From an uncultured Acidobacteriota bacterium (lineage in GTDB: Bacteria > Acidobacteriota > Vicinamibacteria > Fen-336): a DNA stretch of 64,000 bases. Positions 51,165-64,000 of the stretch are shown in pieces. The notes beneath the pieces are model-generated. The model saw only the letters and a list, made by a program, of their open reading frames with translations, did not search any database and was not told the origin of the DNA. Position 1 is the stretch's first letter; each line of letters starts with the position of its first letter. The translations under genes were made by a program, and so were the position numbers. Location of the stretch: contig OY970399.1 of assembly GCA_963720545.1 (NCBI GenBank), forward strand, positions 4,025,373-4,089,372. Reading direction: 5' to 3'.

Positions 51165-53525
51165 TCAAGAAGACGAAGCTTCGGGACGCGCGCCCCACTC
51201 GGATTCGCCCAGCCACGCGAGCAGTTGCTGCGCAGGCATCGGCCGGCTGATGAAGTAGCCCTGCGCCATGTCGCAGCCGAAGCGCTTGAGGATCCCCAGC
51301 CCGTCGGAGTTCTCGAGGCCTTCGGCGACGACCTTGAGTCCCATGTTGTGCCCCAGGTCGATGGTCGAACGCACGATCACGCAATCGTCGATCGTGTCCT
51401 CGCTCAGGTGGATGACGAACGACTTGTCGATCTTCAATTCGTCCACCGGCAGGCGCTTCAGGTGGGCGAGCGAGGAGTAGCCGGTGCCGAAGTCGTCGAT
51501 CGCGAGCGTTATGCCGCGCGCCTTCACCTCGCGCAGGGTCTTGAGGGCATAGGCCGCGTCCTTCATGACCGCGCTTTCGGTGATCTCGAGCACCAGCTTC
51601 GACGGGTCGAGCGCCTGGTCCTGGAGAAGTTCGCCGATGAAAGGCGCCAGGCCGGCATCATAAAGATCGAGGGCCGACAGGTTCACCGCGACGCCGAGGT
51701 CGAACCCGGCGCGATTCCATCGCGCGCACTCCTCGATCGCCTTCTTCAGCACCCACTTGGTGATGATGCCGATGTCGCCCGATTGCTCGGCCAGCGGGAT
51801 GAACTCGTCGGGAGGCAGGAGGCCGTAGACCGGATGTCGCCAGCGGACCAGTGCCTCGGCATGGACGGCCCGCCTGGTGGCGATATCGATCTTGGGCTGG
51901 AAGTCCAGCTCGAGGGCGCCGCTCGCGACCGCCTGACGAAGCTCCGAGATGATCGCGAGGCGGCGCATCGAATGCTCGTCACGGCCCGATTCGTAGAGGG
52001 CGTAGGCGCTGTGGTTCCGCTTCGCCTGGTACATCGCGATGTCGGCGCGCTTCATGAGGGTGCCGGCGTCCTCGGCGTGCAGCGGGTGCAGTGCGATGCC
52101 CATGCTCGCCTTGACGTCGATGGAAACGCCGCCGAGCTGGAACGGCGTGTCGAGCGCCCGGCCGATGCGCTGCGCGAGCTCCACCGCGCTCGCGGGCGCG
52201 GTGCTCTCGAACATCACCGCGAACTCGTCGCCGCCGAGGCGCGCGACGATGTCGCTGCCGCGGATCGTCTGCTGCAGGCGCCGGCCGATCTCCACCAGCA
52301 GGTCGTCGCCGAGGCTGTGCCCCAGCGTGTCGTTGACCTCCTTGAAGCGGTCGAGGTCCATCATCGCCATGCCGACGAGCGTGCCGCGCCGCTTGGCGCT
52401 GGCGATCCACAGCGCAAGGTGGTCGAGAAAAAGCCTGCGGTTGGGCAGTCCGGTCAGGCTGTCGTGGCTTCCCTGGTGGCGGATCTGTTCCTCGCGCGCG
52501 CCGATCTCGGTGCCCATGCGGTTGAAGGCGGTCGCGAGCTGGCCCAACTCGTCGTTCTGCGTGACGACCACCGGCGTCGAATAGTCGCCGCCGCCGATGC
52601 GCTGGGCCGCCTCGGCGAGCCGGCGCAGCGGGCTCGTCACGCCGCGCGCGAAGAACACCGCGGCGACGATGGCGAGGAACAGCGCGGCCGTGGACAGCGC
52701 GAAGATCTGCAGCTCCAGCCGGCGAAGGGGAGCCCGGGCCTCCTCGATCGAGCGCTGCAAGAGGACGTTGATGCTGGAATTGTCGCCGGTTTCGATCGGT
52801 TGCAGCATGGTCTGATACGTGTCCGAACCGAGTCGCAGTGTCTCGGGAATGGCGCCCTTGTCCCGGATTCGCTCCCAGAGAGGCAACTGCTTCTCGGGCG
52901 GGAGGGTCGAGATGAGCAAGTCTGGCGTTGCCGGGTTCGCCGGCCACAAGGACAACTCGAGTGCCGTCAGGCGCCTCACCTCCTGGAGCGCGGCGCCGTC
53001 GATGGGGAAGCCGAGGCACACCCAGGCGATCGGTTGCGGCGCGCGCACCGGCACCACCACGAAGTGGAACGGACGATGGTCGAGTACGACGATCGCCATG
53101 GCTTCGCCTTCGGAAGCGGCCTGCGCAACGAGGCCAGGGACCGGAAACGCTCGGCCCACGAAACGCCCGCCGAGGGTATCCGCGTCCACCGAGCCATCGA
53201 GAGAGATCAGGAACACGGAGTGGCCGTCGACGCGCGCGCCGAGGTTGGTGAGTGCAGACGTGATAGTGGGTTCGTCGCCCGAAGCGATCGCCTCGCGAAA
53301 CGCAAAGTCGGCCACCAGCACGCGCGCGGCGTCGGCGAGCTGGCGTCCGCGCGCCGCGAGAATGCGGTTCAGCACGCGCGCACCGACACCGAGCTCGTCG
53401 GTGACCGTCTGCCGGAGGTTGCGCTGCCCGGCGATGTGGACAGCGGTCAGCGTCGCGGTGACGAACAGGACGAGGGCGCACACCATCAGGGCGAGCAGCC
53501 TCGCCTGGAAACTGCCGCGGCGCAT
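51165..53525 (-). CDS. Membrane sensor with periplasmic domain, HAMP, GGDEF and EAL
   Basis: Two TM helices, HAMP DELGQL, HDSLTGLPNR, GGDEF, EAL, DDFGTGYSS. Confidence 0.93.
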   Translation of the reverse strand: MRRGSFQARLLALMVCALVLFVTATLTAVHIAGQRNLRQTVTDELGVGARVLNRILAARGRQLADAARVLVADFAFREAIASGDEPTITSALTNLGARVDGHSVFLISLDGSVDADTLGGRFVGRAFPVPGLVAQAASEGEAMAIVVLDHRPFHFVVVPVRAPQPIAWVCLGFPIDGAALQEVRRLTALELSLWPANPATPDLLISTLPPEKQLPLWERIRDKGAIPETLRLGSDTYQTMLQPIETGDNSSINVLLQRSIEEARAPLRRLELQIFALSTAALFLAIVAAVFFARGVTSPLRRLAEAAQRIGGGDYSTPVVVTQNDELGQLATAFNRMGTEIGAREEQIRHQGSHDSLTGLPNRRLFLDHLALWIASAKRRGTLVGMAMMDLDRFKEVNDTLGHSLGDDLLVEIGRRLQQTIRGSDIVARLGGDEFAVMFESTAPASAVELAQRIGRALDTPFQLGGVSIDVKASMGIALHPLHAEDAGTLMKRADIAMYQAKRNHSAYALYESGRDEHSMRRLAIISELRQAVASGALELDFQPKIDIATRRAVHAEALVRWRHPVYGLLPPDEFIPLAEQSGDIGIITKWVLKKAIEECARWNRAGFDLGVAVNLSALDLYDAGLAPFIGELLQDQALDPSKLVLEITESAVMKDAAYALKTLREVKARGITLAIDDFGTGYSSLAHLKRLPVDELKIDKSFVIHLSEDTIDDCVIVRSTIDLGHNMGLKVVAEGLENSDGLGILKRFGCDMAQGYFISRPMPAQQLLAWLGESEWGARPEASSS

Positions 53526-53530
53526 CGGGG

Positions 53531-54124
53531 CTACTTCTTTCCGAGCTGGAAGGTCAGGCTCTGCTGTTCGTTGGCGCCGACGCTGACAGGTTGCGGGGCA
53601 GGCTCGTTGCGCATCCCGGGGTACCACACTCGCACGTCATACGCACCCTCGGGCAGGTCGGCAAGCTCCGCACGTCCGCCGGATGTCGTGGCGAACCACG
53701 GCGTGTCCACAACCACGATGTAGGCGCTCATCAGGTCGTGGATGTTGCACCCGACCGTGACGACTCCTGGCTTGTCGAAGACGAGTGGCCCCTGCGGAGT
53801 GCCCGCGTACAACGGAAGCTGGAACCTCTTCGCCGGCGAGAAGGAGTACACCTGGTGCTTGACGTTGTCGCTGTTGGGGAAGATCACCGCCGTCCCGGTC
53901 TGTATCGGCAGGACGTGCGGCACGAAGGTGCGATTCTTCTGGTCGAGCACCGCGCGGCGCGTCGGCGCAGGCGGCCGCCTGCTCCTGGGAACGGCGTAGA
54001 CCACCGCGTCCTCGACCGTGGTTCCCCCCTGGACGTTGCGCAATTCGACGACCAGGGAGCTCGCGGCGGCGCTGGGCCTGGCGATGACAAGCAGCAGGAG
54101 GGCTGCCACGATCACGATGCGCAT
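53531..54124 (-). CDS. Exported cupredoxin-like protein (methylamine utilization MauL-like)
   Basis: DQKNRTFVP, FPNSD..HQVYSFS, GCNIHDLM. Confidence 0.78.
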   Translation of the reverse strand: MRIVIVAALLLLVIARPSAAASSLVVELRNVQGGTTVEDAVVYAVPRSRRPPAPTRRAVLDQKNRTFVPHVLPIQTGTAVIFPNSDNVKHQVYSFSPAKRFQLPLYAGTPQGPLVFDKPGVVTVGCNIHDLMSAYIVVVDTPWFATTSGGRAELADLPEGAYDVRVWYPGMRNEPAPQPVSVGANEQQSLTFQLGKK

Positions 54125-54155
54125 CTGCCCGCAGAGTATCACCGCCGCTGCGACC

Positions 54156-55241
54156 TCACCGGCCTGAAAAACGGTAGCGGAAGTCGCAGAGGATCCGCTC
54201 CCTGCCGCCACCCGCGGACGCCTCGACCCCGATGGTGAGCTTCGGCGCCGGGGTGAAGAACCCTGCGAGCGTCACGGCTTGGCGATGGAACTCGCCGTTG
54301 GTGAAGTCGTCGACGCGCACCGTCGCTCGTCCGCGCGGCAGGCGCCGCGACACGAGGACGTAGCTGGCGCGGATGTCCGCCAGGAACGAACCACCGGGGA
54401 AGAACAGTTCGGTCGGACCCCAGCCGGTCTCGCCCGCGACGGTCCAGTCGGATCGGGTGTAGTCGAAGCCCGCCACGTCGAAGCGGGTTTTCCAACCGTA
54501 GATTTCGCCATACTCCAGGCCGTCGCCGCGGTTGTCGATGTGGGTGAACAGAACCGAGAACTGGCGATGGCTCCATCCCGTGCGCGCCGACCATCCGAGC
54601 CGATGGTCTTTCTCCGCGGACACCGACGCGTAGTACTCGTCGCTGCGAACCTTCTGTCCGAGCACGCTCCATCGGTCGTTCAATGACCAGCCGGGATGGA
54701 GCGGCAGGGCGCCGAAAGTGTCGTTGCCGCGATAGACCGTCGCGCCAACCGTTGCGCCTTTGCCCATCCACGAGACGTCCAGGCCGATCGGTCGAAACTC
54801 CTCGCCGAACCACGAGTTGAGCGCCGAGGAGGAGATCGTGTACGCGTTCTCCCAGAGCGCATCGACGTTCTCGCGTGACGTGGGAAGGAAGAAGGCGCCG
54901 CCGCGGATCTTGACGCGGCTCTTCTCGCCTACGGGAAGGTGTGCCTCGGCGTACGCCTCCGGAGTTCCGAAATGACCATTCTCCGAGTGGCCATCGTCGC
55001 TGCGCGCGAGAAGATGGACATGGACGAGAAAGGTGGGAGAGGGCAACCAGTCGACGCCGGCCTGCACCTGCGCCGACGCGCTGTCGGACTCGAGCGGGTT
55101 TGCCGCCTTGGTGCTGCCGCGCAGCGCGCCGAACCCATAGACCTGCAGTGCGTCATCGGCGCGGATGTCGTGCGAGAGCGCAAGGATAGCGACGAGGGCG
55201 AGGAACACACTCGTTCCCCAGGCTCTGTATGCGGAGGGCAT
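54156..55241 (-). CDS. Putative outer-membrane beta-barrel protein
   Basis: Signal peptide, alternating beta strands, YRF near the C-terminus. Confidence 0.65.
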   Translation of the reverse strand: MPSAYRAWGTSVFLALVAILALSHDIRADDALQVYGFGALRGSTKAANPLESDSASAQVQAGVDWLPSPTFLVHVHLLARSDDGHSENGHFGTPEAYAEAHLPVGEKSRVKIRGGAFFLPTSRENVDALWENAYTISSSALNSWFGEEFRPIGLDVSWMGKGATVGATVYRGNDTFGALPLHPGWSLNDRWSVLGQKVRSDEYYASVSAEKDHRLGWSARTGWSHRQFSVLFTHIDNRGDGLEYGEIYGWKTRFDVAGFDYTRSDWTVAGETGWGPTELFFPGGSFLADIRASYVLVSRRLPRGRATVRVDDFTNGEFHRQAVTLAGFFTPAPKLTIGVEASAGGGRERILCDFRYRFSGR

Positions 55242-55344: not shown

Positions 55345-55373
55345 TTGCATTCGGCGAAAGCTGTTCCTACTGT
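55345..55373 (+). promoter_or_regulatory. Sigma70-like promoter of small paralog A
   Basis: TTGCAT-17 nt-TACTGT, conserved with the copy at 61085. Confidence 0.6.
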
Positions 55374-55406
55374 GGAGTTCCCCCCCTTGAAGAGTGCGAG
55401 TGCTGC

Positions 55407-55604
55407 ATGGATGCACTGGTCGGCTCACGTGTAAGGCTACTGGTCGATGTGCCCGGCTTGAAGGCCGGGACTGTGTGCGTGGTCAGGCGGGTTCTCACCT
55501 TCCCAGGCAAGGAACTGCCAGAAGATCCCCTCTCGCTGGAGCATGATGGGAAACAGGTGTCCGCTTCCCGCCGCGACGTCGAGCCGTTGATGGACGGCGA
55601 CTAG
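55407..55604 (+). CDS. Small SH3-like hypothetical protein, paralog A (65 aa)
   Basis: 45/65 identical to 61141..61338 in an ungapped manual alignment. Confidence 0.8.
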   Translation: MDALVGSRVRLLVDVPGLKAGTVCVVRRVLTFPGKELPEDPLSLEHDGKQVSASRRDVEPLMDGD

Positions 55605-55607
55605 TTC

Positions 55608-56102
55608 CTATTGCGTTTTCGGCGCCGCCTGGCGCGGGTCGTCCGCGGGATTGACATAGGTGATCGTTAGCGGGCCAATGCCGTGGACCTGCAGTATCGA
55701 TGGACGCTTGACGCGCAGGTAATGGCGCATTTCGGCGGGCATCACGACGAACCCTCCAGCCGGCAGGGTTTTCATCGCGGCCGCGTCGAACTTCTCCCCC
55801 ATGCCGACCGCCACCTCGCCCGAGATCAGCGTGAGGTGCTCGTCCGTCGGGTGCCAATGGGGAGGGATCGTGTATCCCGCAGGCATCTTCGCCCGCAAAG
55901 TGAACGGGCCGGGCTTGCCTGGATCGCCCGACAGCACGGCCATCAGTGAACCTTTCGGCAGCGCCGGTGGCGCTTCACCCCATTTGAGCGTGGCGGGCGT
56001 CATGATCGGATGAGTATCCGCGGGTGACGGCGGCGTCTGCGCGGCAGTTGCCAACGCAATCGCGAACGATCCCAGGAACGCCAGTGTGATGCCTCTGCGC
56101 AT
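55608..56102 (-). CDS. Exported cupin (DUF4437-like)
   Basis: PPHWHPTDEH, MRHY, QVHGIGP; GAGG SD; signal peptide. Confidence 0.85.
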   Translation of the reverse strand: MRRGITLAFLGSFAIALATAAQTPPSPADTHPIMTPATLKWGEAPPALPKGSLMAVLSGDPGKPGPFTLRAKMPAGYTIPPHWHPTDEHLTLISGEVAVGMGEKFDAAAMKTLPAGGFVVMPAEMRHYLRVKRPSILQVHGIGPLTITYVNPADDPRQAAPKTQ

Positions 56103-56162
56103 CTTGCCCTCCTCGACCGCACGTCGGTCTGTTCGAGGCAACTATACGACCAGCACGCCTCG

Positions 56163-59123
56163 TTAGAACTGAAATCGCAGCCCGAGCTGGAAGGCGCGTG
56201 GACCGCCCGAGCCGAACACGCCACCCGCCGTATTCACAGGTTGGCCGAAGCTCGATGACGTCAGGAAACCCGGATTGTTCGGATCGCTCGAGTCGCGGGC
56301 GAGCACGTTGGCGTAGCCCGAGTAGTTGCGGGTCGAGACGCCGAGAATGTTGGTGACGTTGAAGAGGTTGAAGACCTCGACCAAAGCCTCCAGATTGCGC
56401 CCGCCGCCCGCTGCGAACACCTTCGAAAGGCGCAGGTCGAGCGAACTGAAGCTGTCGGTGAAACGCGCATCGTCGCTCACCAGCGGCAGGAGAACGCCGT
56501 TGATGCCGCCGCTGCTGTTCAGCTGGCTCAGGTAGGCGTTCAGCTCGGCGGCGGTCTTGAACATCCTCCCGCCCGCATTCCGCGGCAGCGTCGGCACGCG
56601 GCTGGCGGCATCCGGCATCAGGATGTCCATCGGAACTCCCGTCGACCACGTAAAGAGCGGTGCGACCCGGAAGCCCGCCGGCAATTCGAACGATCCGGAA
56701 ACGGTGAGACGGTGACGCCGATCGTTGGGGCTCGGCCCGAACTCGCGCTCCAGGTCGTTCGGGTCGATGGGTCCGTTCGAGAACGGGATCTGGTCGTCGT
56801 TCGCGTAGTTCTCCGCCTTGGCCAGGGTGTAGGACGCCAGCAGGCGGTGGCGGCCGCCGCGCTTTTCGAGCGACATGAGCAAGCCCTTGTAGCGCGTGCC
56901 CACGCTCGACTCGATGTTGACGACGCGATCCGGCCCACCCACGACCGGGTTGAAGACGGTTCCCACCGTCCGGCCGATGAGGAAGTGCGTGCCCTTGTTG
57001 TAGAGGCCGTCGGCGCGCAGGTAAAGGCTGCGGGCGAGTCGCACCTCGGCGCCGAGGTTCCACTGCTGCACCTGCGGGGTCTGCATCGCGTTGTCGATGA
57101 TGTTGATGCCGGAGGCGCCGGCACCGGGCAGGATGAAGCCGGTGAAGGGATTGGCCAGGGACGGAGCGAAGGGCGGAAACTGGCCGGTTCCAGGATCGAG
57201 GAAGAAGACGTTGCCGGCCCTGACCTCGACGGGAAGGGCGCGTCCGTCGAGGCCCCTCTCGAGCGATACGATCTCGAGCGTGATGCGGTCGTAGTAGATG
57301 CCCCAGCCGCCGTGGACGCTGAGGCCTCCGGAAGGAGCAGCCCAGTTGAATCCCAGCCGCGGCCCAAAGTTGTTCTTGTCCCGCTTGCGGTCACCCCGGT
57401 AGAAGCTGGCAACGATCGGGTTCGTGTCGGCAAACCCACTGATGTTCTTGACGTCGGTGTCCATCTCCCAGCGCAGGCCCAGGTTGAGCGTCAACTGTGG
57501 AGTCAGCCGCCAATCGTCCTGCGCGAAGAAGGCGAAGTAGGTGTTGTCGCAGTTGTCGAGGAGCAGGTTGCGCGTGGGAAAGCCACTGCGGAGCGTGACC
57601 GCGAACAGCAGGTCGTTGTCATCCACCCGTGCGTCGCCGTTGTGGTCGAAGTCCGCGAAGTCTTCCACCATCTCGATGCGGCCGGCCTGGAAGACGCCCA
57701 GATCGAAACTGGTGTCGATGCTCTGCAGCTCGCCGCCGAACTTGATGCTGTGGGCGCCGCGCACCAGCGCCAGGCTGTCCGAGACCTGGAGGCGGTCCTG
57801 GCTCGTGGCCTGGGGGACGCGGAAGGAAGCGCCGTCCTGGATCGAGGGGAAGGTGAGCTGCGGCGCGCCCGGGACGACGGGCACGATGTCGTTGCGGTAG
57901 CGGCTGTAGCTCAGGGAGAGGGTGTTGAGGCTGGCATCCGACAGCGTCTTGGCCCAGGTGCCGAGCACGGAGTTGTAGACGTTCGAGCTGTCCTGCCGCT
58001 GGGACGCAGAACCAATGGAGCGATCGAGCGTGCTGGCGGAAGTATCGTCCGCGCTCTCGAACGAGTAGCGCAGCGTCACACGGTCGCCGCCGGCGGGACT
58101 CCAGTCGAGGCGCGCCGTGCCGAGCCAGTCCTGAAGCGGCCCACCGGCAAACGTGCGCCGGATCGTTCGGTTGGCAACGTCTCGCTCGCCTACGAGCACC
58201 GCCCCGTCCTGGTCGCGGTACTCGAGGGCCGCGAACCAATGCAGCCTGTCTTTCTGGAGCGGGCCGCCGAGGGCCAGCGCGTATTGCTGGCGGTCGAAGG
58301 GCGGAGCTTCCTGCCTGCGGTCGTACGTCGCGGGTAGCGACTGAAGCGACTTGTCTCGCACGAACACCGAAGCCGTTCCCTTGAGCTCGTTGGTCCCGGA
58401 ACGCGTGACCACGTTGATCGCCGAGGCGGCAGACCGCCCGCTCTCGGCGGAGTAGCGGTTGGTCGCGATCTGGAATTCCTGCACCGCGTCCTGGGGGACG
58501 TTCTGCAGTGGACCGCCGACAGCGTCGTCGTTGTTCTCCTGCCCGTCGATCGTCACCATCCCGCCGCGTCCGAACTGACCAGCCGAGGACACCACCACGC
58601 TGTTGGTCTTCGTGGGATCGAAGTTCGGCGTCGGCACATTCCCCGGCACGAGGAACGCCAGCTCCATGAAGTTGCGTCCGTTCAGGGGCAGTCGATCGAT
58701 GGCGGTCTGCCCGATGACGCCGTCCACGGTCGAGGAACCGGCGGTCACGAGCTCCGGCCTGTCCGTCACGTCCACCGTGTCCGAGACGTTGCCCAACTCG
58801 AGCACCACGTCCAACCGGTAGCGTTGCCCCACGGCCAGTGCCAGACCCTTGTGCGTGCGGGTCGCAAAACCCTTGGCGTCGGCGACGAGCGTGTAGTTGC
58901 CCGGAGGCAGCTCAGGAAACGTGAACCCGCCGGCACGGTCGGTATCGGTCGCGCGCCGCAGCGTCGTCCCCTCGGCTTCGACGACAACCCGAGCGCCATG
59001 CACAGCCTGTCCTTGCGGATCGAGCACGCGGCCCTGGAGGGTTGCCGCAATAGCCGGCGCGGCCAGGCCAGCGATGAATAGAACTATGCCGGCTCGCACG
59101 CCGATCGAGTGACGCTGTAGCAA
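56163..59123 (-). CDS. TonB-dependent receptor, Oar-like, with carboxypeptidase-regulatory N-terminal domain
   Basis: GRVLDPQG, LPLNGRNF, YSAESGR, TRSGTN, NNFGPRLGF, PRAFQLGLRFQF. Confidence 0.93.
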   Translation of the reverse strand: MLQRHSIGVRAGIVLFIAGLAAPAIAATLQGRVLDPQGQAVHGARVVVEAEGTTLRRATDTDRAGGFTFPELPPGNYTLVADAKGFATRTHKGLALAVGQRYRLDVVLELGNVSDTVDVTDRPELVTAGSSTVDGVIGQTAIDRLPLNGRNFMELAFLVPGNVPTPNFDPTKTNSVVVSSAGQFGRGGMVTIDGQENNDDAVGGPLQNVPQDAVQEFQIATNRYSAESGRSAASAINVVTRSGTNELKGTASVFVRDKSLQSLPATYDRRQEAPPFDRQQYALALGGPLQKDRLHWFAALEYRDQDGAVLVGERDVANRTIRRTFAGGPLQDWLGTARLDWSPAGGDRVTLRYSFESADDTSASTLDRSIGSASQRQDSSNVYNSVLGTWAKTLSDASLNTLSLSYSRYRNDIVPVVPGAPQLTFPSIQDGASFRVPQATSQDRLQVSDSLALVRGAHSIKFGGELQSIDTSFDLGVFQAGRIEMVEDFADFDHNGDARVDDNDLLFAVTLRSGFPTRNLLLDNCDNTYFAFFAQDDWRLTPQLTLNLGLRWEMDTDVKNISGFADTNPIVASFYRGDRKRDKNNFGPRLGFNWAAPSGGLSVHGGWGIYYDRITLEIVSLERGLDGRALPVEVRAGNVFFLDPGTGQFPPFAPSLANPFTGFILPGAGASGINIIDNAMQTPQVQQWNLGAEVRLARSLYLRADGLYNKGTHFLIGRTVGTVFNPVVGGPDRVVNIESSVGTRYKGLLMSLEKRGGRHRLLASYTLAKAENYANDDQIPFSNGPIDPNDLEREFGPSPNDRRHRLTVSGSFELPAGFRVAPLFTWSTGVPMDILMPDAASRVPTLPRNAGGRMFKTAAELNAYLSQLNSSGGINGVLLPLVSDDARFTDSFSSLDLRLSKVFAAGGGRNLEALVEVFNLFNVTNILGVSTRNYSGYANVLARDSSDPNNPGFLTSSSFGQPVNTAGGVFGSGGPRAFQLGLRFQF

Positions 59124-59203
59124 AACTCCCTCCCTGATGATCCAAGCCCGGTTGAAGAATCCCCGGCAGTGTAGCCCGAGCTCGAACTTTTAAAGAGCCC
59201 TTT

Positions 59204-59237
59204 CCGAAGTTCTGAGCCGCTCCCCCGAAGTTCTGAG
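59204..59237. repeat. 13-bp direct repeat with 21-bp period upstream of the TonB receptor
   Basis: CCGAAGTTCTGAG at 59204 and 59225. Confidence 0.65.
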
Positions 59238-59791
59238 GGCTCCTTGCGCTTGCGCCGGCCCGAAGAACCCACCGTCACCCCGAACCCTTTTGATGCCATT
59301 TTGATGACGGTCCCCGTACCTTGACTCGTCTTGTGGAGTCAAGGACCGTGCATGGCTCACTAACGGGCGCGTTGATGTCCAGCGGACGTGACCCATTGAC
59401 GGCAACGCAGACCGACGACGATCTCCTGGCGGGAAACAAAGTCTGGTTGTCGCCATAGCGCACGATCCTCACGGTGGTAGACGAGCCACAGCACATCGTG
59501 ATCAGAAGAAGGCTCCTCGCCGTAGAGAAGCCACCGCCGTTCGCTGGTAGTAAGCAGCTGCTTTCGATGCTGTCGGCTGTATCGCTTCCTTGGCATGCGC
59601 TACGCCCCTGCCCACTTACTTTTCTTTTTCGCCGGATCGGGCGTCCAAAGGGGCGGCCTAGTCGTCGCCATGCAGCCCCGATTTTCCGCCATGAGCAGTC
59701 GCGGCGGAGCGAAAGCGTCTCAGCTCCGTGGGGGGGGCGCCTTTTGAAAATCTCGAACAATACCCTCAGGCCGACTACAGGTGACGATCCG

Positions 59792-60565
59792 TCAAGGTAG
59801 GGTGAATGAGTCGCTGGCGGATCCGGCTGATGCCCAAGGCAAGTGAACCCGTCCATCATCAAGATGTCGGTTCCATTCATCTACTGCCAACAGGAACGCT
59901 TGCACCTCGCGTTGCCCAGATGGCAGCGTCGTCGGTACTGCGACCGTATCCTTTTGCGTAGCCTCATCACGACCGAAAACCACTAGCCACTTCTGAATGC
60001 CTAGGATCTTGTTCTCGCAAGCCGTGCCGGGATCGAGCCCTACCGCAGCGGTGATCCCAACGATCATCATCCTTTTGCTGGCCCATTGGGTACCCCGCGC
60101 CAGCGTGTCGTGCATCTTTGCTGGCGTGGCTCCGAGTCCCATTTGAAAGACTTCTCCGGGAATCCCGGATGGGGCCTCCAATTTGAAGTCATCCGTGACG
60201 CCGTACCACCCGAGTCGACGGCCCTCCCTTCGATCCACGGCCCAGCCGTTGAAGGATTCGTCGACTTGGCCCGTTACCGTCCGGTCCTGCTGCGTGCCGA
60301 AAGGTTGTATGTACTTTCCGGAATCCATGTCCATGGGATGAAGTACTTGGACGAACCAGTAGTTGCCGCAACGAATCGGACAGCTTTGAGGCCTATGTGT
60401 GAAGGTCAATTCGAATAGCGCTGCTTGCCCTGTGACATTCGTATCCGTCGTGGGCTCGAAGGAAAACGTGCCGCAATTCGCAAGAGGTGGATTTGGGATT
60501 GTCGGGCACGTCGAAGCACTCAGAACTAAGGAACTCACAACGGCAATACAGATTCGTTGATTCAT
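59792..60565 (-). CDS. Hypothetical exported protein or lipoprotein (257 aa)
   Basis: AGGAG SD; signal peptide ending in Cys; long ORF in lower-GC DNA. Confidence 0.65.
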   Translation of the reverse strand: MNQRICIAVVSSLVLSASTCPTIPNPPLANCGTFSFEPTTDTNVTGQAALFELTFTHRPQSCPIRCGNYWFVQVLHPMDMDSGKYIQPFGTQQDRTVTGQVDESFNGWAVDRREGRRLGWYGVTDDFKLEAPSGIPGEVFQMGLGATPAKMHDTLARGTQWASKRMMIVGITAAVGLDPGTACENKILGIQKWLVVFGRDEATQKDTVAVPTTLPSGQREVQAFLLAVDEWNRHLDDGRVHLPWASAGSASDSFTLP

Positions 60566-60627
60566 TGCATCGCTCCTGTCGAGTCAGCCGCAAAACGGGC
60601 GGACTCGTAGCCAATGAACCAGAAGCA

Positions 60628-60885
60628 TTATCGACCGCCGGACGCCCTTACCAGCCCTACGAGTACCAGGGACCCAGCGATTGCCCCAAAGATGCCTGGC
60701 ATCGGTTCTGCCGAAGCATAGTTAGCGACGAGTCCACCCAATACACCGCCTGCCACGCCTGCGCCGCTCACAATGATCCACTTCGCGAACGCACCCGGAG
60801 GTGGATCTGGCAACCAGAAGATGCGCATCAGAATTAAAGACGAAACTCCCCATCCGATTAACGCCGAAAGGACCTGAGACTGCAT
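60628..60885 (-). CDS. Small Gly-rich three-TM membrane protein (GlsB/YeaQ-like)
   Basis: GVAGGVLGG and GAIAGSLVL hydrophobic segments. Confidence 0.6.
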   Translation of the reverse strand: MQSQVLSALIGWGVSSLILMRIFWLPDPPPGAFAKWIIVSGAGVAGGVLGGLVANYASAEPMPGIFGAIAGSLVLVGLVRASGGR

Positions 60886-61084
60886 ATTCGTCGTTCCCCT
60901 TGCTCGATTGCTCGTCCTTTGCAATGCATCGCCGCGATGATTCCGCGGCGCGCTCGCATGCCTGCTGCCTCGACTCGTTTTGAGTCTTCGCTGTGGTAAG
61001 TGACGGACATCAGCTGAGCAATTCCGCATATGCGCAGGAAGACGCACCGACTCGTGTGCGGGCTTGATCGTCCGCGTTCTCATC

Positions 61085-61113
61085 TTGCAATCGTCGAAAC
61101 CGGTGCCTACTTT
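61085..61113 (+). promoter_or_regulatory. Sigma70-like promoter of small paralog B
   Basis: TTGCAA-17 nt-TACTTT, homologous to 55345. Confidence 0.6.
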
Positions 61114-61140
61114 TGAGTCCCCACCCCGAAGGGGTCAGTG

Positions 61141-61338
61141 ATGGATGGATTGACAGGCGCACGCGTGAAGCTCCTTGTTGATGTCCCCGGCTTCAAAGCT
61201 GGTGAATTCGGCGTGGTCAGACGGGTTCTGACCTTCCCGGGCAAGGAGCTGCCAGAGGATCCCATCTCGTTGGAGCTTGGTGGCACCACCGTGCCCGCCT
61301 TCCGTCGAGACGTCGAAGTGGTGGAAGACAGCGAATAG
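61141..61338 (+). CDS. Small SH3-like hypothetical protein, paralog B (65 aa)
   Basis: Shares LLVDVPG and VVRRVLTFPGKELPEDP with paralog A. Confidence 0.8.
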   Translation: MDGLTGARVKLLVDVPGFKAGEFGVVRRVLTFPGKELPEDPISLELGGTTVPAFRRDVEVVEDSE

Positions 61339-61611
61339 CTAGTCGGGATCGCCCTGACCCTCGTCAGACGGGTTCGGCTTTGCTGCGGTTTGAGCGCGAT
61401 TAGATAGCCGCGTCGTGGCCGACTGATCCGCGAGCGGGCGTATCTCAGACCCATACGTCGCTACAAACTTTCCGTGGCACTCCACCACGACAAGTTCCTG
61501 TCCGTCTTCGAGGTCTCTGACGCTGAAGACCGTACCCCAATCGCCGCGAGCAGCAGGCGGTACATCATGGAGAAATTCGACTCGAGTTCCAATAAGAGGA
61601 TTGGGTTTCAT
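61339..61611 (-). CDS. Small SH3-like hypothetical protein, paralog D (90 aa)
   Basis: LIGTRVEFLHDVP..GDWGTV..VVVECHG..EIRPL aligns with A, B and C. Confidence 0.65.
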   Translation of the reverse strand: MKPNPLIGTRVEFLHDVPPAARGDWGTVFSVRDLEDGQELVVVECHGKFVATYGSEIRPLADQSATTRLSNRAQTAAKPNPSDEGQGDPD

Positions 61612-61821
61612 CGAACCGGACTCGGATTGGTTGGACCAAGCGACGGGCCGGAGCGGGGGCTTCGTGCTCAGGACACTTGACCCGGCTGTCCCGACCCGTC
61701 TGGCGCAAATATAGGCCACGCGAGCCCAACCGTATAGGGGGTTTCCCTTACCTATTAAGGCGTTGTTAAAGAGGGCTCAGGATGACCGAGTGCCGCGACC
61801 CGGTCGCGAAAAGAGGACCTC

Positions 61822-62022
61822 TTAATCGAGCGCAGCCGCGCCTATTTCGTTCCGAAAGGCCACGAGTCGTTCGCCCCCGTGATCCAAGACGACAACGTCT
61901 TCGGGTCGTTCTCCATGCTGGAACGTCAGCACCGTGACAACCGTGCAGACGCTGCCTTTCCTGGCAAACGTCAAATCGGCTAACAGTGTCACCATCGTTC
62001 CGGCCAGCAGCTGTAACGTCAT
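61822..62022 (-). CDS. Small SH3-like hypothetical protein, paralog C (66 aa)
   Basis: LAGTMVTLLAD..GSVCTV..VLTF..ERPED..LDHGG..AFR aligns ungapped with A; GAGG SD. Confidence 0.75.
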   Translation of the reverse strand: MTLQLLAGTMVTLLADLTFARKGSVCTVVTVLTFQHGERPEDVVVLDHGGERLVAFRNEIGAAALD

Positions 62023-62413
62023 TGAGTTCCCTCATCGGCGGTGCCTCAGATGAGGCCCCCAGCCGGACGTTGCGGGGGAAGCTCAGGAAAAGCGCGGCAT
62101 GTCCACCGTATAGGTAGGCATCGCCGATTGATATAGCGAACTAAAGGAGGCTCCTGACCAGTAGGTCAGGGAGGGGCTTCAGGCAGCGCGATTAGACGCG
62201 TAAGAATCGATTGGCAGCGCCCCAGAGGGTGACGGTGGTAGACGATTCGGTGCTGCCAGGAGACTGCGACCGAAGCCGTGAGCGCCACCCTCCAGGAGCA
62301 GGCGCAGTCTCTTCCACGGGCCGCCTTGTTTTTGTGCGACCCACCACCAGCGCAGTGTGAACGTTGTGTTGCTCACACCGCGTACCTGCGGCGAAGTACA
62401 GGATGCCAACTTC

Positions 62414-62647
62414 ATGGGCATCGCTCCTAACACGGCAATGACGGTTATCCGAGCGCCGGCCGACCTGTGCCATCTGGTTGGAAAGCAAGTAGTGGTCTGG
62501 CCCAATCGCACCCGCAATTTGCCGACGGATGTTGTAACGGTGGTTGCCGACGACGAAATGGGAAACCGTCGTCTCTACAAGATGCATGCTGCCGATCTTG
62601 CACCCATCCGGAGCAATGTCGCTTGCCCCCTGAGGATCGTTCCTTAG
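62414..62647 (+). CDS. Small hypothetical protein, possible remote paralog E
   Basis: LPTDVVTV resembles RPEDVVVL and LPEDP; ADLAPI resembles RDVEPL. Confidence 0.4.
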   Translation: MGIAPNTAMTVIRAPADLCHLVGKQVVVWPNRTRNLPTDVVTVVADDEMGNRRLYKMHAADLAPIRSNVACPLRIVP

Positions 62648-62648
62648 C

Positions 62649-63764
62649 TCAGAAGAGTTTCGAATCTAGGGGTGCGACGACGGCTTCCAACGATGCCAAA
62701 GGCAAGTCCACGGTAAATAGGCATCCGCTTCCGGGCATATCGCGGACATGTACTTGGCCGTTATTGGCTTCAATAGCGCGCCGGCAATAAGTAAGCCCGA
62801 GCCCGATGCCGGTTCTGTCCATACCGCGCTGCTCAAATGCAGAAAACAACGTGTCCGTGTTTCCAAGCGGAAGCCCACCGCACTCGTCTTGGATCTCGAT
62901 CAGGACGCGGTCATTGGACGCGACGGCGCGGATCGTGACCTTGGTTCCAGGCAGCGTGAACTTCAGGGCGTTCTGAATGAGATTCATGAGCACCGAGGAA
63001 ATCACCTGCGGATCGATTTCGATCGCCAGGTCATTCTGTATCGGTCCTGCAATGAGCCTAATGCGCGATGCGTGAGCTATCAGCGCGGCCGACGGCATGA
63101 GTTCATTGAATAGTTCAGCGATTGGCACTATTCGGCGGTTCAAATTGCCCTTGGTCAGGCTGATTGCGAGAAGTGAGTGCGCCACCAAGTCACTTGCTCC
63201 CAGCAGACTCCGCTTCAGCACCGCGCCCGTGTGTCCGTTCACGCCGACCCCGCCAGATTCGACGGCTTCAAATGCGAGGAAAGCCGTATTGAGGAGGTTG
63301 CGTAATTCGTGAGCCATAAAGCCCAAGCGTTCTTGCTCCTTCAAAGCTTGGCTGTCGATTGTCGCTTGGTTGAGTTCGCGACCAAATTGCGTGAGCGCGC
63401 CAGCAATGGCCGTGTCCAGGCACTGATTCAGAAGCCGGAAGTCTTCGGGGGATACCGGCGCTCTGGTTTCAATCGCCAGCTCCGCAATTGACTGACAGAC
63501 ATCCCCATAGTCGTGCACGACCTGGGAGACGGTAAATCCCTGAAGGCGCAGATCGTGCCCATGCAAACCCGCGCTTTGACCAATCGCTGCCGGCATGGAG
63601 CCGTCGCGAAAAGCGTCCGCTAACTGATCCAAAAACAGCGGGACTCCATGGTCGATTTCCGCGACAGTAGGGGACGGAACGGACCGAGTAAGTACCTTGG
63701 AACGGCATCGCCTTATGATTTCTGCCCGGTGAAGGCCGATAAATTCATAAAGCATTTTGGCCAA
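62649..63764 (-). CDS. Cytoplasmic sensor histidine kinase with helical RsbRD_N-like input domain
   Basis: HELRN H-box, NALKFT N-box, DECGG, GIGLGL; VVHDYGDVCQ. Confidence 0.9.
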   Translation of the reverse strand: MAKMLYEFIGLHRAEIIRRCRSKVLTRSVPSPTVAEIDHGVPLFLDQLADAFRDGSMPAAIGQSAGLHGHDLRLQGFTVSQVVHDYGDVCQSIAELAIETRAPVSPEDFRLLNQCLDTAIAGALTQFGRELNQATIDSQALKEQERLGFMAHELRNLLNTAFLAFEAVESGGVGVNGHTGAVLKRSLLGASDLVAHSLLAISLTKGNLNRRIVPIAELFNELMPSAALIAHASRIRLIAGPIQNDLAIEIDPQVISSVLMNLIQNALKFTLPGTKVTIRAVASNDRVLIEIQDECGGLPLGNTDTLFSAFEQRGMDRTGIGLGLTYCRRAIEANNGQVHVRDMPGSGCLFTVDLPLASLEAVVAPLDSKLF

Positions 63765-63957: not shown

Positions 63958-64000
63958 TAGGCCGTGTGGGGATCGAACCCACGACTCCCTGCTTAAAAGG
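63958..64000 (-). tRNA. tRNA-Lys (TTT), 3' portion only; 5' part lies beyond the window
   Basis: Minus strand reads CTTTTAA anticodon loop, GCAGG, GTGGG-TTCGATC-CCCAC T-arm, ACGGCCT-A; no encoded CCA. Confidence 0.85.

Follow-up and report, generated by a model that had tools for sequence, protein, structure and literature searches.

What are the tiny genes that lie scattered in both orientations near the tRNA-Lys(TTT) gene at the end of contig OY970399.1, from an uncultured bacterium of the Acidobacteriota (assembly GCA_963720545.1), and why does one genome keep so many of them? The window analysed here is the final 64 kb of this single 4.09-Mb contig (68.7% GC), and a first-pass annotation made from the letters of the sequence had proposed in it an expanded set of four or five related SH3-like proteins, A to E. 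The five open reading frames (ORFs) were present at the positions and on the strands proposed. Gene A (55407-55604, +) encodes a 65-amino-acid (aa) protein predicted to form an SH3-like barrel and lies tail to tail with a cupin gene across a gap of 3 nt; gene B (61141-61338, +; 65 aa) is of the A subtype, and its stop codon abuts that of gene D with no gap; gene C (61822-62022, -; 66 aa) is a divergent member; and gene D (61339-61611, -; 90 aa) is of a D subtype with a shorter beta2-beta3 loop and a tail of about 25 aa. Gene E (62414-62647, +; 77 aa), which abuts a histidine kinase gene, is no member of the family by sequence. The results showed that A to D are real genes of one uncatalogued family, and the genome-wide pattern, in which eleven copies all stand at tRNA islets, is a stronger result than the window alone.

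As first described, A and B are identical at 45 of 65 positions without gaps, and C aligns with both, also ungapped and at an offset of 2, with 23/64 identities to A and 22/64 to B. When a profile of A and B was run against the 56,897 six-frame ORFs of the genome, it recovered C clearly (E 5.8e-10) and D weakly (E 0.21), the best decoy among reversed ORFs standing at E 0.92. The D paralogues, which lie at tRNA-Leu(TAA) and tRNA-Lys(CTT), scored 5e-4 and 0.016 in the same search, and a profile of 22 outside homologues recovered D at 4e-14 and C at 5e-20, these homologues having been found with a D-containing profile and so not being fully independent. Given the score of D against the A/B profile alone, its membership rests on its paralogues and on the outside homologues. 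Comparison of A with B gave a nonsynonymous rate (dN) of 0.22 and a synonymous rate (dS) of 0.77, and the resulting dN/dS of 0.29 (p 8e-5) indicated purifying selection and not a ratio near 1. Purifying selection was significant in all ten pairs tested, including gene E against its homologue (Fisher p 4e-4 to 4e-10), and dN/dS ran from 0.11 to 0.30 among pairs with dS under 1.5, which bears out the idea of a diversified family under selection. Four of five alternative A/B frames showed no such excess, and one antisense frame gave a weaker signal. A-type proteins from other sources were 89-95% identical and full length. Four public DNA runs, produced by three studies, contain pieces of the B-E region at 100% identity, so the region is not an assembly artefact; an expression look-up listed no RNA dataset among the public runs that contain it.

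Across the genome the family comprises 11 copies, nine intact, one truncated (L) and one with an internal stop (K), and seven of them lie outside the window. Copies A to D are at tRNA-Lys(TTT), copies H, G, K and F at tRNA-Leu(TAA), copy I and the truncated L at tRNA-Lys(CTT), and copy J, a fusion (genome 670421-670864), at tRNA-His. Ten copies lie 0.7-5.0 kb from the 3' end of the tRNA gene (B to D at 2.0-2.9 kb) and A lies 8.6 kb away. All four sites fall within 5 kb 3' of a tRNA gene, DNA that makes up 4.8% of the genome, and the chance of three further sites all lying within 5 kb of a tRNA 3' end is about 1 in 10,000. The islets at the four sites start at tRNA 3' ends and have a GC content of 54-62% against 68.7% for the genome; in the window the islet runs from 59000 (an approximate left edge) to 63958 at 56-61% GC, and gene A, surrounded by DNA of about 64% GC, is outside it. 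The scattered siting near a tRNA-Lys island therefore held, with A outside the islet composition, and the count of four or five gave way to eleven genome-wide. Gene pairs face both ways, B/D being convergent and C/E and H/G divergent.

Several features of the islets resemble those of integrated elements. The 3' end of tRNA-His is repeated (41 bp) 0.9 kb downstream, with gene J just beyond the repeat, and that of tRNA-Lys(CTT) is repeated (21 bp) 4.9 kb downstream. At tRNA-Lys(TTT) a 42-bp repeat coincides with the overlap of the contig ends, which is 42 bases long: the tRNA gene spans the contig join, is complete across it and faces the islet with its 3' end, and a tRNA search of the window alone returned 0 tRNAs, since the gene is cut by the window end. 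The overlap corresponds exactly to the 42 bases at the 3' end of this tRNA (window 63959-64000, -; genome 1-42), and it represents either a circular overlap or a repeat of the attachment (att) type. The assembly may thus break at an att repeat of tRNA-Lys(TTT) and conceal an integrated element there. The islets also share DNA modules at 73-90% identity, with one another and with islets near tRNA-Arg and tRNA-Gln. Together, the low GC, the shared modules, the att-like repeats at three sites and the tRNA linkage uphold the earlier description of mobile-looking DNA.

The upstream DNA indicated how some copies may have travelled. A promoter-like box pair (TTGCAT, 17 nt, TACTGT) stands upstream of A at 55345-55373 (+) and is conserved upstream of B at 61085-61113 (+; TTGCAA, 17 nt, TACTTT); a consensus promoter scan returned 0 sites, both pairs being below its threshold. 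Because the DNA similarity between A and B covers about 60 bases upstream, including the TTGCA-17-TACT boxes, and ends at the stop codon, A and B appear each to have moved as a promoter plus its gene. Start sites often come without a clear ribosome-binding site. The first-pass annotation placed none of A to E clearly in an operon with a larger gene; copy F, outside the window, does appear to end a small operon. There a duplicated module (locus L003, 9470-9910 and 10530-10990) holds a sigma54-like box, a 58-aa acidic peptide and a proline-rich lipoprotein-like ORF, followed by F; its peptides had no Pfam or NCBIfam match, and a deleted version of the box and acidic-peptide module precedes the truncated copy L (locus L002, 6600-6730).

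The leader of D contains a conserved long hairpin (61642-61700, -), without a match in Rfam. It recurs at genome 3874304-369, ahead of the D-type gene H, and at 2508011-081, where there is no family gene; a weak copy stands at 2095377-446 near tRNA-Ser. It is 54-59 nt long in the leaders of D and H, and the copy at 2508011 lies behind a sigma54-like box. Folding z scores of the three strong copies were -1.5, -5.7 and -2.3 on the mRNA strand vs +0.3, -4.7 and +0.4 on the other strand, and the copies show paired changes. A start of D at 61719, giving a long N-terminal extension, was dropped, as a 5-nt difference in the hairpin of H breaks that frame. A covariance model found the hairpin in 0 of 100 relatives, and the exact pattern had no match in GTDB or viral contigs. 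The hairpin shares short motifs with a dispersed repeat resembling repetitive extragenic palindromes (REP), and it could be such a repeat and no leader at all. Each of the four copies of this lineage-specific hairpin stands on the 3' side of a tRNA gene, at a distance of 0.2-14 kb. The REP-like repeat itself occurs at 59226-59270 and about 15 more times in the genome, and no Y1 transposase was found. Readings of the hairpin as a hammerhead, for which stem II is missing, and as a CsrA site, for which the genome has no csrA, were rejected.

Relatives of the family were sought with HMMER over 1.84 billion representatives, which gave 32 matches at E<=0.001. The working alignment also has 32 rows, made up of 23 outside sequences and nine own copies, after removal of long proteins with short partial matches (P0023, P0031, P0034), one spurious match (P0033), own or near-identical sequences (P0003-P0007) and P0010, which was placed in the alignment of fusions. 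In all there are about two dozen metagenomic relatives, and every named one is a "hypothetical protein". Given that relatives share identical longest-contig sizes (1,517,584; 430,679; 134,110; 20,674; and 2,226 bases), the data suggest that contigs in other organisms likewise bear several copies each, with three on the 2.2-kb contig, as judged from these sizes with the contigs themselves unseen. In a tree of 40 sequences and 56 columns, whose deep forks are unresolved, the nine own copies need at least seven label changes; outside sequences are the companions of A, of B, of F, of D/I and of J, so that the subtypes are older than this genome. Since the nearest relatives of several subtypes sit in other organisms, what had been called an expansion is an accumulation of old subtypes, with no recent local burst.

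Genome scans, limited in the large sets to 15 scored candidates per genome, gave one match among 60 relative genomes (G055, E 0.004, partial), two among 400 class-level genomes (G182, plausible, and G267, partial) and one among 400 phylum-level genomes (G548, E 8e-4); the sets overlap, and no genome of the same genus is among them. The G182 member (locus L020, 1474-1671) lies among transposase-like ORFs and repeats, and the 20 kb to each side of it contain no tRNA; it adjoins a Sel1-repeat-like gene and a peptidase-S24-like fragment, names that were read by eye. Context searches found the family in none of 569 metagenome contigs and 93 candidate stretches, collections from which close relatives were possibly left out, and a GTDB context search gave 2/22, both partial and neither confirmed by the family profile.

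The fold was predicted with AlphaFold from the 32-sequence alignment (predicted local distance difference test, pLDDT, 82). The model has five strands (E8-11, E23-29, E41-46, E49-54 and E58-60) with a short helical 3-10 turn at 55-57 before strand 5, and the top matches by Foldseek and VIA-align were almost all SH3, KOW or Tudor barrels. The best Z score, 8.2, was to the N-terminal domain of Hpy99I, and S4e, Spt5 KOW5, NusG and the CPH domains of HERC2/CUL7 tied at 7.0-7.7. In a BFVD search, predicted phage proteins with no assigned function scored best (E 7e-4). The five-strand SH3/KOW-like barrel is secure as a predicted fold, in agreement with the first-pass annotation; function is not implied by it. 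Conserved core residues are G6, V9, L12 and G21, and among polar residues conservation is good at three positions only: D14 (22/32) in the RT loop, D/E40 (32/32) at the end of the n-Src loop and R/K55 (30/32) in the 3-10 turn. The beta2-beta3 (n-Src) loop is long and variable. In classical SH3 domains the RT loop, the n-Src loop and the 3-10 turn form the ligand face (10.1101/140376), and by analogy the three polar residues would cluster in space on one face. The barrel cores carry net charges of -4 to +4, seven of nine lying within -4 to +1, which is unlike a general nucleic-acid binder.

Gene E had been put forward as a weak fifth member. This was not borne out, as its match to the profile of 32 family sequences had an E value of 33 and the hhalign profile-profile probability was 4%. 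A different tie was found in gene J, in which an N-terminal E-like domain (53% identical to E over 60 aa) is followed by a family domain, and the same fusion is present in four outside proteins (P0010, P0047, P0049 and P0050). By sequence, E is thus likely a partner of the family, connected to it by fusion and not by homology. The model of J reached a pLDDT of 44 with no usable fold match and did not place the E fold, and a context search for the fusion gave 0/32.

Library searches agreed with the view that the family is undescribed. Pfam, PHROGs and NCBIfam returned nothing significant on 32 members (best phrog_7871, 2/32, E 0.0014), a PDB sequence search gave eight matches at E 0.36-1.6, none significant, and no description was found in the literature searched, though unnamed families are hard to find by words. 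DUF4926 is an SH3-like family. The proteins here resemble it as stand-alone proteins of about 60 aa with a similar start pattern (G-x-x-V-x-L-L-x-D ... G) and differ in a longer beta2-beta3 loop bearing a P-E-D motif. DUF4926 has been proposed as the immunity protein of BECR-Tox3/DUF6883 RNases (10.64898/2026.08.28.747851); no DUF6883/BECR-Tox3 gene was among the ORFs scanned round A-E or in other islets, some small ORFs being outside the scan. KOW/SH3-like barrels such as NusG, Spt5 KOW, S4e, CUL7-CPH, the Hpy99I N-terminal domain, Ssl0352 and NdhS share the five-strand barrel with a 3-10 turn (Z 7-8, root-mean-square deviation about 2 A over 50-60 residues). They differ in that identity is 11-26% with no match at the sequence level (the KOW motif, PF00467, matched none of 32 members at E<=0.1), whereas the family here is stand-alone, multi-copy and confined to tRNA islets. 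DUF4314 (PF14192) and YorP (PF09629) are also small SH3-like proteins of mobile elements and gave weak Atlas leads (0.89 and 0.85), but the DUF4314 model matches no copy and both match 0/32 members. Phage T4 MotB (PF17613), which is predicted to be KOW+OB and counters H-NS (PMC7827196), is likewise a small two-domain beta protein of mobile DNA; its second domain has an OB fold, whereas the majority of the present copies have one domain and are not basic, and the MotB model gave 0 matches at E<=10 in the genome. Polyimmunity loci or orphan immunity arrays offer another likeness, with several divergent paralogues that lack a toxin and vary between relatives (PMC3482391); as far as Pfam shows, the family is not a listed Imm family. 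The family is therefore new, and its fold and its kind, a small protein of mobile DNA, are already known.

How might these features fit together? Mobile elements that integrated at tRNA 3' ends in this lineage would have left the family as cargo and lost their integrases, and the islets would now exchange small gene modules; such an origin from integrative elements is probable. Each gene would yield a stand-alone SH3-like barrel that binds a partner protein by the face of the RT loop, the variable beta2-beta3 (n-Src) loop and the 3-10 turn, and many divergent subtypes would be kept because each recognises a different partner. Action by protein binding, which we consider somewhat better than an even bet, is suggested by the fixed scaffold, the variable loop, the near-neutral charge, the genes' own promoters and the decayed integrative DNA around them. 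The partners would most likely be incoming or resident conflict proteins, i.e., toxins or defence or counter-defence factors, and the family would then consist of orphan immunity or neutralising proteins after the manner proposed for DUF4926, with E as a second small domain working with one subtype. We give this conflict role, as orphan immunity or counter-defence, a probability of roughly one in three.

A number of results weigh against this reading. An integrase is absent from the genome, which has two tyrosine recombinases only, far from the islets, that we take from our own reading of their translations to be XerD and XerC; it also has no large serine recombinase (PF07508) and no IS200-type transposase (Y1_Tnp model). 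At tRNA-Leu(TAA) an att-like repeat was looked for and none was found, and the islet there carries AI-2E transporter, DUF5670/lmo0937, YflT-like, BON and hemerythrin genes (L003, 4960-7660 and 11000-11490). Searches with PADLOC and with Pfam (26 queries) identified no toxin, defence or partner gene next to any copy, and PADLOC on nine proteins gave no hit for A-E or J. The family was found in 0/56 viral contigs and in none of the phage and plasmid collections searched. The likeness to DUF4926 did not extend to membership, as its model (PF16277; Pfam cut-off 29.1 bits) found no copy at E<=10 in the genome and 0/32 members at E<=0.1. Polyimmunity loci are described as tandem and co-oriented in the cited account (PMC3482391), whereas the copies here face both ways, are not tandem and are spread over four tRNA sites. 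Finally, the best Z of 8.2 is barely above background, and the barrel fold is common to very many unrelated functions.

These points leave room for other readings. The copies could be KOW-type regulators that bind nucleic acid, either RNA, which for the D subtype would be its own leader hairpin, or, like MotB, DNA, relieving the silencing of foreign DNA. Spt5 KOW5, NusG and S4e are indeed among the top structural matches (Z 7.3-7.7), but peptide-binding SH3 domains tie with KOW, and most copies are neutral or acidic. The nearest Atlas matches of fusion J are MotB clusters (0.88 and 0.87), yet an Atlas score under 0.9 counts as no more than a lead, the recognition value fell short of the 2300 mark, and the MotB model found nothing. 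The hairpin, present in two of three D-type genes, with better folding on the mRNA strand and paired changes, speaks for an RNA target; its absence from gene I, its presence at 2508011 with no family gene, its REP-like motifs and its absence from the 100 relatives searched speak against one. Taken together we consider nucleic-acid binding doubtful. It is unlikely, too, that the copies serve a horizontally moved general-stress module as small adaptors or as helpers resembling anti-anti-sigma factors. Four copies at tRNA-Leu(TAA) do lie among YflT-like, BON, DUF5670/lmo0937, hemerythrin and AI-2E genes, which are of the general-stress type, and F follows the acidic peptide and the lipoprotein-like ORF behind a sigma54-like box; a comparable islet at tRNA-Arg contains DUF892. 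Such genes are missing, however, from the window islet and from the tRNA-His site, the box common to A and B is of another, sigma70-like kind, and these stress genes are widespread, whereas the family is convincing in one of 400 class-level genomes.

Decay of once-useful genes of dead elements, with no current role, would account for the two broken copies of eleven, for the missing integrase and for start sites that often have no clear ribosome-binding site. Nine copies are nonetheless intact, close A-type proteins persist at full length elsewhere, and dN/dS is low, though this is a measure of past selection; passive debris is thus rather improbable. The earlier suggestion that the copies regulate the neighbouring histidine kinase (62649-63764) or the GGDEF-EAL enzyme (51165-53627) had proximity in its favour, as E abuts the kinase gene and A is 1.8 kb from the c-di-GMP gene. 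It did not survive comparison: neither the family nor the E domain was present at any of 80 loci of kinase relatives (flanks up to 6 kb, many shorter), seven copies lie far from both genes in a genome that has one close kinase copy only, and the genes are convergent and not co-transcribed. We regard such regulation as very improbable. A lineage-restricted system, in which the tRNA islets would serve as an integrase-free bank of diversified SH3-barrel binders, together with E and the D-leader hairpin, supplying renewable neutralisers or regulators against incoming mobile elements, is a long shot.

Phages and islands commonly carry small SH3-like proteins with no assigned function, as a rule a single one in each element. 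The soil bacterium studied here has eleven copies, of at least five old subtypes, all beside tRNA genes, and the hundreds of relatives searched gave no convincing copy bar the plausible one in G182. A natural series of paralogues with a fixed scaffold and one variable loop offers a handle for finding binding partners. If the proteins are orphan neutralisers, they would form a new immunity family with tRNA islets as its storage sites.

Copy K (genome 3874915-3875127; L003 8916-9128) has one in-frame TGA, a hairpin resembling a bacterial selenocysteine insertion sequence (bSECIS) and a good ribosome-binding site, in a genome with selenocysteine machinery (selA, selB, tRNA-Sec, a selD-like gene and a deiodinase-like gene with an in-frame TGA). 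The hairpin has a 6-bp stem and a G-first loop 17 nt past the TGA, and its geometry fits the model as given in PMC13188914; 6-12% of random TGAs pass the same test. The TGA column is a mixed core position with no conserved Cys (G 13, C 9, V 4 and A 4 of 32), and the closest homologue, P0051 (54%), has Gly there. A selenoprotein is on these grounds hardly credible, and copy K is probably a recent pseudogene, a nonsense change being more likely. The deiodinase-like gene at genome 401754 (+), which we assign to that family from its motif, has the in-frame TGA in an SCT-U-PPF motif with a downstream hairpin and is the only clear selenoprotein in the genome scans.

Of the other genes in the window, the kinase next to E (62649-63764, -; HATPase_c) belongs to a sensor-less family with 310 GTDB matches, the best mostly in Vicinamibacterales and other Acidobacteriota; it is common in Vicinamibacterales and is a neighbour, not a conserved partner. 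Judged by this one gene, the host probably belongs to their class. An ARAGORN tRNA call fell within the flanks at nine of the 80 loci of its relatives. The convergent gene pairs at 55604/55608, 61338/61339 and 62647/62649 have 3, 0 and 1 nt between their stop codons and no terminator; a resemblance between the DNA past gene I and the end of B hints that the B-D pair could be old. The islet also holds, on the minus strand, ORFs for a 257-aa lipoprotein-like (59792-60565) and an 85-aa membrane-protein-like product (60628-60885), neither of which matches Pfam or NCBIfam. Upstream of the islet, three co-oriented genes at 51165-55241 (-) encode an unannotated 361-aa secreted protein, a carboxypeptidase-regulatory-like protein and the dCache-HAMP-GGDEF-EAL enzyme.

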